Source: Escherichia coli
Lineage (GTDB): Bacteria; Pseudomonadota; Gammaproteobacteria; Enterobacterales; Enterobacteriaceae
DNA length: 978 nucleotides
Assembly: GCF_003334255.1 (NCBI RefSeq)
Contig: NZ_QOWU01000179.1
Direction: 5' to 3' (one strand)
Positions within the stretch are counted from its first letter, which is position 1, and the number at the start of each line of letters is the position of its first letter. Position numbers and translations under genes: made by a program. Positions 461-565 of the stretch are shown here, piece after piece. The notes under the pieces were generated by a model that made no database searches, was not told the origin of the DNA, and saw nothing but the letters and a program-made list of their open reading frames with translations.

Positions 461-494
461 TTGTTGACTCCTGAAAAAAGACAAAGGGAACCCG

Positions 495-510
495 AAGGCA
501 TGAATGCCTT
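495..510 (-). promoter_or_regulatory. perfect GC palindrome AAGGCA-TGAA-TGCCTT (6-bp arms, 4-nt centre) in the spacer upstream of the 76-aa gene; candidate operator or RNA hairpin
   Basis: Read directly from the sequence: 495-500 aaggca, 501-504 tgaa, 505-510 tgcctt. It lies 35 to 50 nt upstream of the 76-aa gene's ATG and directly abuts the AT palindrome TTAATTAA (509-516). On the minus-strand transcript it would form a 6-bp stem followed 15 nt later by a U6 tract (complement of 474-479). Function is not established. Confidence 0.3.
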
Positions 511-565
511 AATTAATTGCTCGTGTGTTTTCTGGTGTTATTCCGCGCCTGCTTTCGGCTTCAGG

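Follow-up and report, generated by a model that had tools for sequence, protein, structure and literature searches.

The window analysed here, a stretch of 978 nucleotides of Escherichia coli DNA, carries a series of small phage genes that are separated at one point by a sizeable spacer (461-565), and the question raised by this locus is what that spacer does. A preliminary description of the sequence had offered three possibilities, namely a repressor operator overlapping an internal promoter, a leaky attenuator, or an RNA-processing hairpin that sets the relative dosage of the genes on its two sides. Our best reading is that the window holds a real but modest element with a regulatory or stability function, and that this element is neither a promoter, an operator nor a classical terminator.

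The window belongs to the Cox-side early operon of an E. coli prophage that is P88-like and of the P2 family, and is transcribed on the minus strand, to which the genes had correctly been assigned. Matches to the window were found by BLAST in 31 of 5,426 complete E. coli genomes, and the locus proved to be a 37-kb P2-family prophage inserted beside chpSB and ppa. The closest named phage is P88 (Xuanwuvirus, Peduoviridae); a megablast search of the phage collection returned no match, and the distant mode returned short gene fragments only. The operon runs on one strand through Cox, DUF4761, DUF4754, a 41-aa membrane ORF, the spacer, a 76-aa ORF, an exonuclease gene, a ParE-like gene and Dam to gpA (replication endonuclease), and the RefSeq annotation is blank over 461-673. 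The features of the window, with their strands and the basis for each, are as follows.

1-232, minus strand: 5' part of the exonuclease gene (3'-5' exonuclease, Rv2179c-like; annotation, PHROG 255)
230-460, minus strand: 76-aa ORF, of which the spacer is the leader (RefSeq: hypothetical; PHROG 22206)
468-472, minus strand: Shine-Dalgarno sequence AGGAG, 7 nt before the ATG (460-458) of the 76-aa ORF
473-494, minus strand: 3' flank CGGGUUCCCUUUGUCUUUUUUC, made up of GG(N)UUC and then a pyrimidine tract in which the U6/U7 run lies (sequence)
495-510, minus strand: predicted RNA hairpin AAGGCA-UUCA-UGCCUU, 6 bp, 4-nt loop, -5.8 kcal/mol (sequence and fold)
511-541, minus strand: 5' block AUAACACCAGAAAACACACGAGCAAUUAAUU, A/C-rich, predicted single-stranded, containing TTAATTAA; start of the conserved block
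541/542, no strand: mosaic junction, where BLAST matches of diverged prophages end
542-565, minus strand: part of the spacer that is specific to the lineage and not conserved, CCUGAAGCCGAAAGCAGGCGCGGA (lacking or differing in L002, L003 and L004)
566-661, minus strand: unannotated 31-aa hydrophobic ORF MKNVKAILTIATVWVIFQVSALIWLALKIWE (ORF list), which would set the upstream end of the spacer if real
674-799, minus strand: gene for a 41-aa membrane protein; of the conserved early genes, it is the last ahead of the spacer region (annotation)

The exonuclease gene overlaps the stop codon of the 76-aa ORF (TAATG). The 76-aa protein has no Pfam match, and its PHROG carries no function; its gene is hypervariable, the fastest-evolving part of the operon, with nearly equal variability at codon positions 1, 2 and 3. 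In one relative (L039, 1013-1501) the homologue of this protein forms the C-terminal half of a 162-aa protein. On the upstream side, homologous ORFs of 37-41 aa likewise precede the spacer in P88-like phages. A second mosaic breakpoint is located at approximately 804, near the boundary between DUF4754 and the 41-aa ORF, as nine E. coli prophages match the window over 1-804 only. Elsewhere in the same prophage (L032), a small gene between the exonuclease gene and Dam has a counterpart annotated as ParE-family toxin-like in related prophages, and a Hok/Gef-family gene is present at the far end (2596-2736 and 34598-34825 being the two loci noted).

Whether the entire interval 461-565 is non-coding depends on the unannotated 31-aa ORF, and the original description of the spacer holds only if this ORF is real. 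Its reading frame is intact in seven variants despite an in-frame 3-nt indel, and therefore the limits chosen for the spacer are reasonable. The C-terminus of the ORF is variable, however, and it is missing from some relatives, one of which (L004) has a different hydrophobic ORF of 34 aa in its place.

All of the sequence features first reported for the spacer are present at the coordinates given. The perfect palindrome AAGGCA-TGAA-TGCCTT occupies 495-510, an A6 run at 474-479 gives U6 in the minus-strand transcript, and CTCCT at 468-472 corresponds to the AGGAG ribosome-binding site. The AT palindrome TTAATTAA is likewise found at 509-516, where it overlaps the larger palindrome by two nucleotides rather than abutting it, but it is not kept as a palindrome, given that Klebsiella-type relatives show AAAAAUAA or UUUAAUUAA at this position. 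Folding of the minus-strand transcript, which had been suggested as a check, predicts the -5.8 kcal/mol stem, while the minimum free energy (MFE) z-scores of the spacer are near 0 on both strands. By the partition function, the 511-541 block is mostly unpaired.

Taken from this single sequence, the spacer features are no more than would be expected by chance. When the 105-nt spacer is shuffled with its dinucleotides preserved, 13% of the shuffles contain a perfect 6-bp stem with a loop of 3-8 nt (P 0.13), and the whole window contains one such stem when 1.5 are expected. An 8-bp palindrome is present in 32% of spacer shuffles (P 0.32). The hairpin becomes significant only through comparison with relatives.

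Two other structures or coding features suggested by the spacer did not survive such comparison. A 14-codon mini-ORF (MPSGSLCLFSGVNK) begins within the hairpin and ends in an ATGA at the start of the 76-aa ORF, but in relatives it is thrown out of frame by a 1-nt indel and by a U-run of either 6 or 7. RNAalifold proposed that the 5' block pairs at long range with the U-tract and Shine-Dalgarno sequence, but this pairing is accompanied only by transitions opposite U or G; its register is lost in the Klebsiella relative described below (L249), and an MFE fold that includes the coding sequence adopts another arrangement.

Comparisons with other prophages reveal where the conserved unit begins. 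The downstream-in-operon side (461-541 and lower) is conserved with the module, and the upstream side (542 and higher) is variable. Because matches to diverged prophages end at 541/542, the 81 nt from 461 to 541 travel with the 76-aa and exonuclease genes. Two relatives (L002 and L003) lack 542-673, so that the stop codon of their 41-aa ORF directly adjoins the conserved block, and a third (L004) carries a different small ORF in place of 542-673. Given that 542-565 is absent or different in these three, the MFE pairing that uses this segment is not conserved.

Among 14 distinct versions, nucleotide diversity (pi) is 0.054 in the spacer (0.025 in its core) and 0.171 in the 76-aa coding sequence. 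In a sliding comparison over the whole operon, the spacer ranks with the most conserved 40-nt windows, reaching an identity of 0.988 where the background is about 0.93, but parts of the exonuclease gene match this peak, and the true outlier is the hypervariable 76-aa gene. The high conservation of the spacer could also stem in part from recent recombination at the module junction. The stem is unchanged in the 14 versions, which were found through the protein, and there is a single loop change. In the 3' flank of this lineage, only the third G and the length of the U-run (6 or 7) vary, and the Shine-Dalgarno sequence AGGAG is kept in all versions except one (L026, AUGAG).

More distant relatives are needed to distinguish conservation of a structure from conservation of a sequence. 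A search anchored on the exonuclease, with one genome per species, identified a Klebsiella michiganensis prophage (L249) whose exonuclease is 48% identical. A 74-aa ORF upstream of this exonuclease appears to be kin to the 76-aa protein, as judged by eye from an RK-ERAH-L motif shared by the unaligned sequences. Its leader reads AAUAA-CGGCA-UUCAUUU-UGCCG-GGGAUUCGUUUUGCCUUUUUCAGGAGG, in which the 5' arm and the start of the loop (GGCAUUCAU) agree with the window letter for letter. The loop has three additional nucleotides (from 4 to 7) with the hairpin intact, the outer pair has changed from A-U to C-G, and the 3' flank of this protein-anchored relative is GGGAUUCGUUUUGCCUUUUUC. A further version (L044 and L248) has UUGCCA-UUUC-UGGCAG followed by GGGCUUUUU.

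We also scanned metagenomes with a pattern for the downstream translation initiation region only (GGNNTNCNTTTNNCNTTTTTCAGGAG), leaving the hairpin free, and recovered about 60 relatives. These include stems of the types GCAAUG(A)/(U)CAUUGC and UGCCGC/GCGGCA. The invariance of the 3' flank among these metagenomic relatives is circular because the pattern fixes it.

In total, the hairpin is kept with five stem sequences, namely that of the window, CGGCA/UGCCG, GCAAUG/CAUUGC, UGCCGC/GCGGCA and UUGCCA/UGGCAG. The E. coli, Klebsiella-like and metagenomic representatives share a layout of hairpin, GG(N)(A/U)UY, pyrimidine tract and CAGGAG, and in all P2-type versions the distance from the stem end to the ATG is 27-34 nt (34 nt in the window). 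Loops vary freely and include UUCA, UUCAUUU, UUUC, AUUC and ACCC, among others. These patterns show that the hairpin is selected as a structure, with the compensation coming from distant relatives whose alignment relies in part on finding a hairpin. No Rfam family matches the window at E<=10. The L248 version of the spacer gives a sub-threshold match to the Rfam algC family at 1233-1282 (25.2 bits, where the gathering score is 33.8; E 0.17), which is probably due to chance.

A paired symmetry of this kind could be formed by RNA or be read by a protein on duplex DNA, and the substitutions that alter only one arm carry information on this point. Ten distinct single-arm substitutions were available when the families were pooled. 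Six of these keep a G·U pair on the mRNA-sense strand, two give G·U on the antisense strand only and two are pair-breaking transversions, such that four of the ten break the sense-strand pair. The neutral expectation for pairing kept by chance is about 25%, and thus the sense strand is enriched and the antisense strand is not, although the numbers are small. The enrichment leans towards a hairpin in RNA (or in single-stranded sense DNA) over a duplex operator. We consider it probable that the hairpin is a selected element of the sense-strand RNA with a post-transcriptional or co-transcriptional role.

The same observations weigh on the proposal of a DNA-level site, which could be either a palindromic operator bound by a dimer, acting on an internal promoter or as a roadblock, or the linker of a recombination joint without a role in expression. 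The palindrome is perfect, mosaic junctions adjoin the block (at 541/542 for the window type; on the 3' side of the hairpin for the P88 type described below), and a co-evolving operator would also yield symmetric double changes. Yet no sigma-70-like site, with -35 and -10 hexamers spaced by 16-18 bp, was found on either strand of 461-565 or in the equivalent regions of the Klebsiella relative and P88, in agreement with the earlier failure to find a convincing -35/-10 pair. A sigma-54 promoter was considered and set aside because GG and GC are unsuitably spaced within the palindrome. The palindrome is present in a single copy in the 37-kb prophage (40-kb locus), even when two mismatches are allowed, whereas operator half-sites are usually repeated in the genome of an element and keep their sequence. 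Stem sequences are wholly different between lineages with pairing kept, single changes are biased to sense-strand G·U, and a loop expanded from 4 to 7 nt is tolerated even though the spacing of half-sites would change. A linker would have no need of a hairpin, yet the hairpin is kept in every lineage. A DNA-level site is therefore improbable in our judgement, and the suggestion of an operator with an internal promoter is not upheld.

A hairpin can also act on the opposite transcript, and the palindrome might terminate a plus-strand RNA complementary to the message of the 76-aa gene. Among relatives, the sequence immediately past the stem is U-rich when read on the antisense strand, and terminator-like calls were obtained at 1232-1248 of the Klebsiella relative (CGGCAAAATGAATGCCG TTATTTTT) and at 2988-3001 of P88 (L030; TCCGCGAATGCGGA TTGTTTTT). 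In the window, however, the tail on that strand is AAUUAAUUGC, the scan calls no terminator there, and no plus-strand promoter-like site is evident in 230-494. The changes that give G·U on the sense strand would also leave the antisense RNA with A·C mismatches (6 versus 2), and we regard this explanation as very improbable.

The reading of the palindrome as an RNA hairpin gains a point of comparison from the P88-type prophages themselves, in which a different spacer takes the same operon position. This second spacer type is represented by about 230 IMG/VR contigs (e.g. L060-L127) and by P88 (L030, 2961-3046, minus strand). It follows a small membrane ORF and consists of an A-rich tract, the hairpin UCCGC-AUUC-GCGGA, GGUAUUCGCACACG and a Shine-Dalgarno sequence. 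In a sequence-based alignment, all five pairs of the stem vary and 130 of 130 cells are paired; the variants comprise two double changes from C-G to U-A and three wobble changes. The covariation score was reached by none of 500 shuffles, and control positions slid along the alignment pair at 35-62%. An alternative hairpin (GCGGA-GGUA-UUCGC) was rejected, as it is broken by variants without compensation. The P88-type hairpin has no Rfam family. It lies ahead of at least five unrelated genes, and it is therefore not bound to a single gene product.

The P88-type and window spacers have in common their operon position, a stem of 5-6 bp, a loop of 4 nt, the GG(N)(A/U)UY motif and a distance of 27-34 nt to the ATG. 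Like the window hairpin, the P88-type hairpin follows DUF4754 and a small membrane ORF, precedes variable early genes, has a U-rich loop of 4 nt on a stem of 5-6 bp, is followed by GG(N)AUUC and ends 27-34 nt before the next ATG. One hairpin (H2) of an intergenic element in Citrobacter phage phiNP and its relatives is related to the P88 type. The sequences of stem and flank are different in the P88 type, and the P88-type block is linked to upstream genes, whereas that of the window is linked to downstream genes.

A covariance model (R1) built from the 64-nt type A element of the P88 type has its top matches in the H2 hairpins of phiNP (E 0.17) and L257 (E 0.49), and gives no match to the window at E<=10. 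Because the model misses the window hairpin, we classify the window element as a positional and architectural analogue of the P88-type element, not a proven homologue. The hairpins of these two types could not be aligned in one structural register by MAFFT, and therefore pairs were counted across types by script. Six DUF4754 proteins were also aligned, but their divergence was too great for the alignment to serve as a search anchor.

The phiNP-type element is a structured intergenic region of about 130 nt downstream of a DUF2303 gene, without an Rfam match, and it is found in phiNP (L031, about 4616-4735, minus strand), L257 (about 770-890), L303 (about 840-960) and more than 90 IMG/VR contigs (L320-L439). 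It is composed of a covarying 9-bp hairpin, the hairpin UCGCC-NNNN-GGCGA followed by GGGAUUCGUGCAACC, and a third hairpin, in which the loop GUGCAG is conserved. For this element, RNAalifold proposes 19 pairs, eight of which show compensatory changes.

As far as we found, none of the window, P88-type and phiNP-type hairpins has an earlier description, and our literature searches on stem-loops of P2-like early operons or on Xuanwuvirus produced nothing relevant. It is conceivable, if speculative, that they belong to a wider undescribed class of leaders (hairpin plus GG(G)AUUC) that is distributed across unrelated temperate enterobacterial phages, those of the P2-like P88 type and of the phiNP type, at the very junctions where cargo is swapped, and that gates this cargo through a host factor such as RNase E, pausing or Rho. 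In the phiNP type, a hairpin of this kind sits within the three-hairpin structure of about 130 nt.

If the hairpin functions in the sense RNA, its effect could be exerted on transcription, on processing or on translation. A leaky intrinsic attenuator, the second of the original suggestions, is not supported, as a terminator scan was empty on both strands of the window. In addition, an intrinsic terminator has a G+C-rich stem with a U-tract no more than 0-2 nt behind it, whereas here a weak stem is separated from the U-run by 15 nt, and the P88-type positional analogue has no U-run.

Another way to act on the polymerase is to stabilise a pause. Class I pauses are associated with a hairpin located 10-12 nt upstream of Y|G and a G at -10. 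The window, L249 and L044 all have GG-N8/9-U|G right behind the stem, so that a pause could occur at U|G, about 11-12 nt past the stem and with -10/-11 occupied by G, and the first two G residues are invariant in the window lineage, where the third alone varies. The untranslated flanks, rich in A/C and in pyrimidines, might also let Rho act on such a complex, as a weak Rho-dependent attenuator that sets read-through into the accessory module; the spacer is untranslated, has more C than G, and contains 10 YC dinucleotides. However, a consensus as short as G-10/Y-1/G+1 should arise by chance at about 10% of such positions, the geometry is missing from P88-type spacers, and a C/G ratio of only 1.3-1.5 makes for a weak rut site. 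We consider a pause or Rho-dependent attenuator unlikely, but the pause is a serious rival to the reading favoured below.

The hairpin might instead be an RNA operator, in which it and GG(N)UUC are bound by a protein of the phage or the host, such as a translational repressor or an N-like antiterminator, and the downstream genes are controlled in this way. Such a site would be well placed immediately upstream of the ribosome-binding region, and the conserved structure does adjoin a conserved single-stranded flank. The loops vary freely and the stems differ by lineage, however, and we found no candidate protein that co-occurs with all hairpin types. The element occurs once per prophage, and it does not resemble a lambda-type nut site, as 461-565 contains no boxA-like (CGCUCUU-like) string and the loops are of 4-7 nt, U-rich and variable, where boxB has a conserved purine-rich pentaloop. 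An RNA operator is, in our assessment, quite unlikely.

The third of the original suggestions, a hairpin acting at the RNA level to set upstream versus downstream expression, fits all of the evidence, and it is the one we favour, although the processing step is something we infer. We propose that the spacer serves the 76-aa gene as its untranslated leader within a long early-operon mRNA, and that the palindrome forms a short hairpin on the sense strand; for this explanation as a whole, including the role set out in the next paragraph, we judge the chances to be about even. From 5' to 3', the leader would present a single-stranded stretch rich in A and C, the hairpin, GG(N)UUC, the pyrimidine tract, AGGAG and the AUG.

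The hairpin and the RNA machinery of the host would together uncouple the fate of the upstream half of the mRNA from that of its downstream half. Host machinery is favoured because loops vary freely, at least five unrelated genes lie behind the P88-type hairpin, and no phage protein is common to the carriers. The likeliest route would be a cut by RNase E in the single-stranded GG|UUC or in the A/U-rich flank beside the stem, after which the hairpin would shield the end of one product from exonucleases. The core consensus for RNase E is RN|WUU (PMC5222698). The GG|UUC of the window agrees with this low-information motif at four of five positions, including U+2, and the 3' flanks of the L249, L044 and P88-type spacers match it fully. 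The hairpin would also keep the U-rich initiation region, with its Shine-Dalgarno sequence, clear of long-range pairing, and thus the 76-aa and exonuclease genes could be translated independently of the upstream sequence. This specific combination of processing, stability and translation is a tentative proposal, and we rate it as somewhat short of an even chance.

If the hairpin does set the stability or translation of the downstream module, then P2-like prophages could adjust the dosage of swapped-in accessory genes with no promoter reserved for them, and the presence of a fixed leader cassette at module junctions would be explained. The finding in the window is itself modest, being a small cis element of an ordinary type, and the family around it is possibly of greater interest. 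Unannotated covarying hairpins in hundreds of enterobacterial prophages are candidates for inclusion in RNA family libraries.

Several known systems provide a context for these proposals. As in an intrinsic terminator or attenuator, the sense transcript of the window has a hairpin and a U-run, but it departs from that class in the 15-nt gap between stem and U-run, the weak stem and the negative scan. Intercistronic stem-loops combined with RNase E cleavage give segmental stability to mRNAs in the pap system, the REP hairpins of malEFG, and puf. The window resembles these systems in having a short hairpin in the untranslated gap of a long operon, with an A/U-rich single-stranded flank and an RN|WUU-like site, between gene blocks that plausibly need different dosage. 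The window hairpin is, however, far weaker than REP-type stabilisers, and it lies beside the ribosome-binding site that follows it and not at the end of the gene that precedes it.

A hairpin in the 5' leader combined with a U-rich translational enhancer is found in the phage T7 gene 10 leader and in the ompA 5' UTR. Unlike these, the leader in the window is internal to an operon and has no primary 5' end, such that its hairpin could serve as a 5' stabiliser only after processing. The order of elements is nevertheless the same, with a stem-loop that edges the ribosome-binding region on its 5' side, followed by an unstructured U-rich stretch and a strong Shine-Dalgarno sequence.
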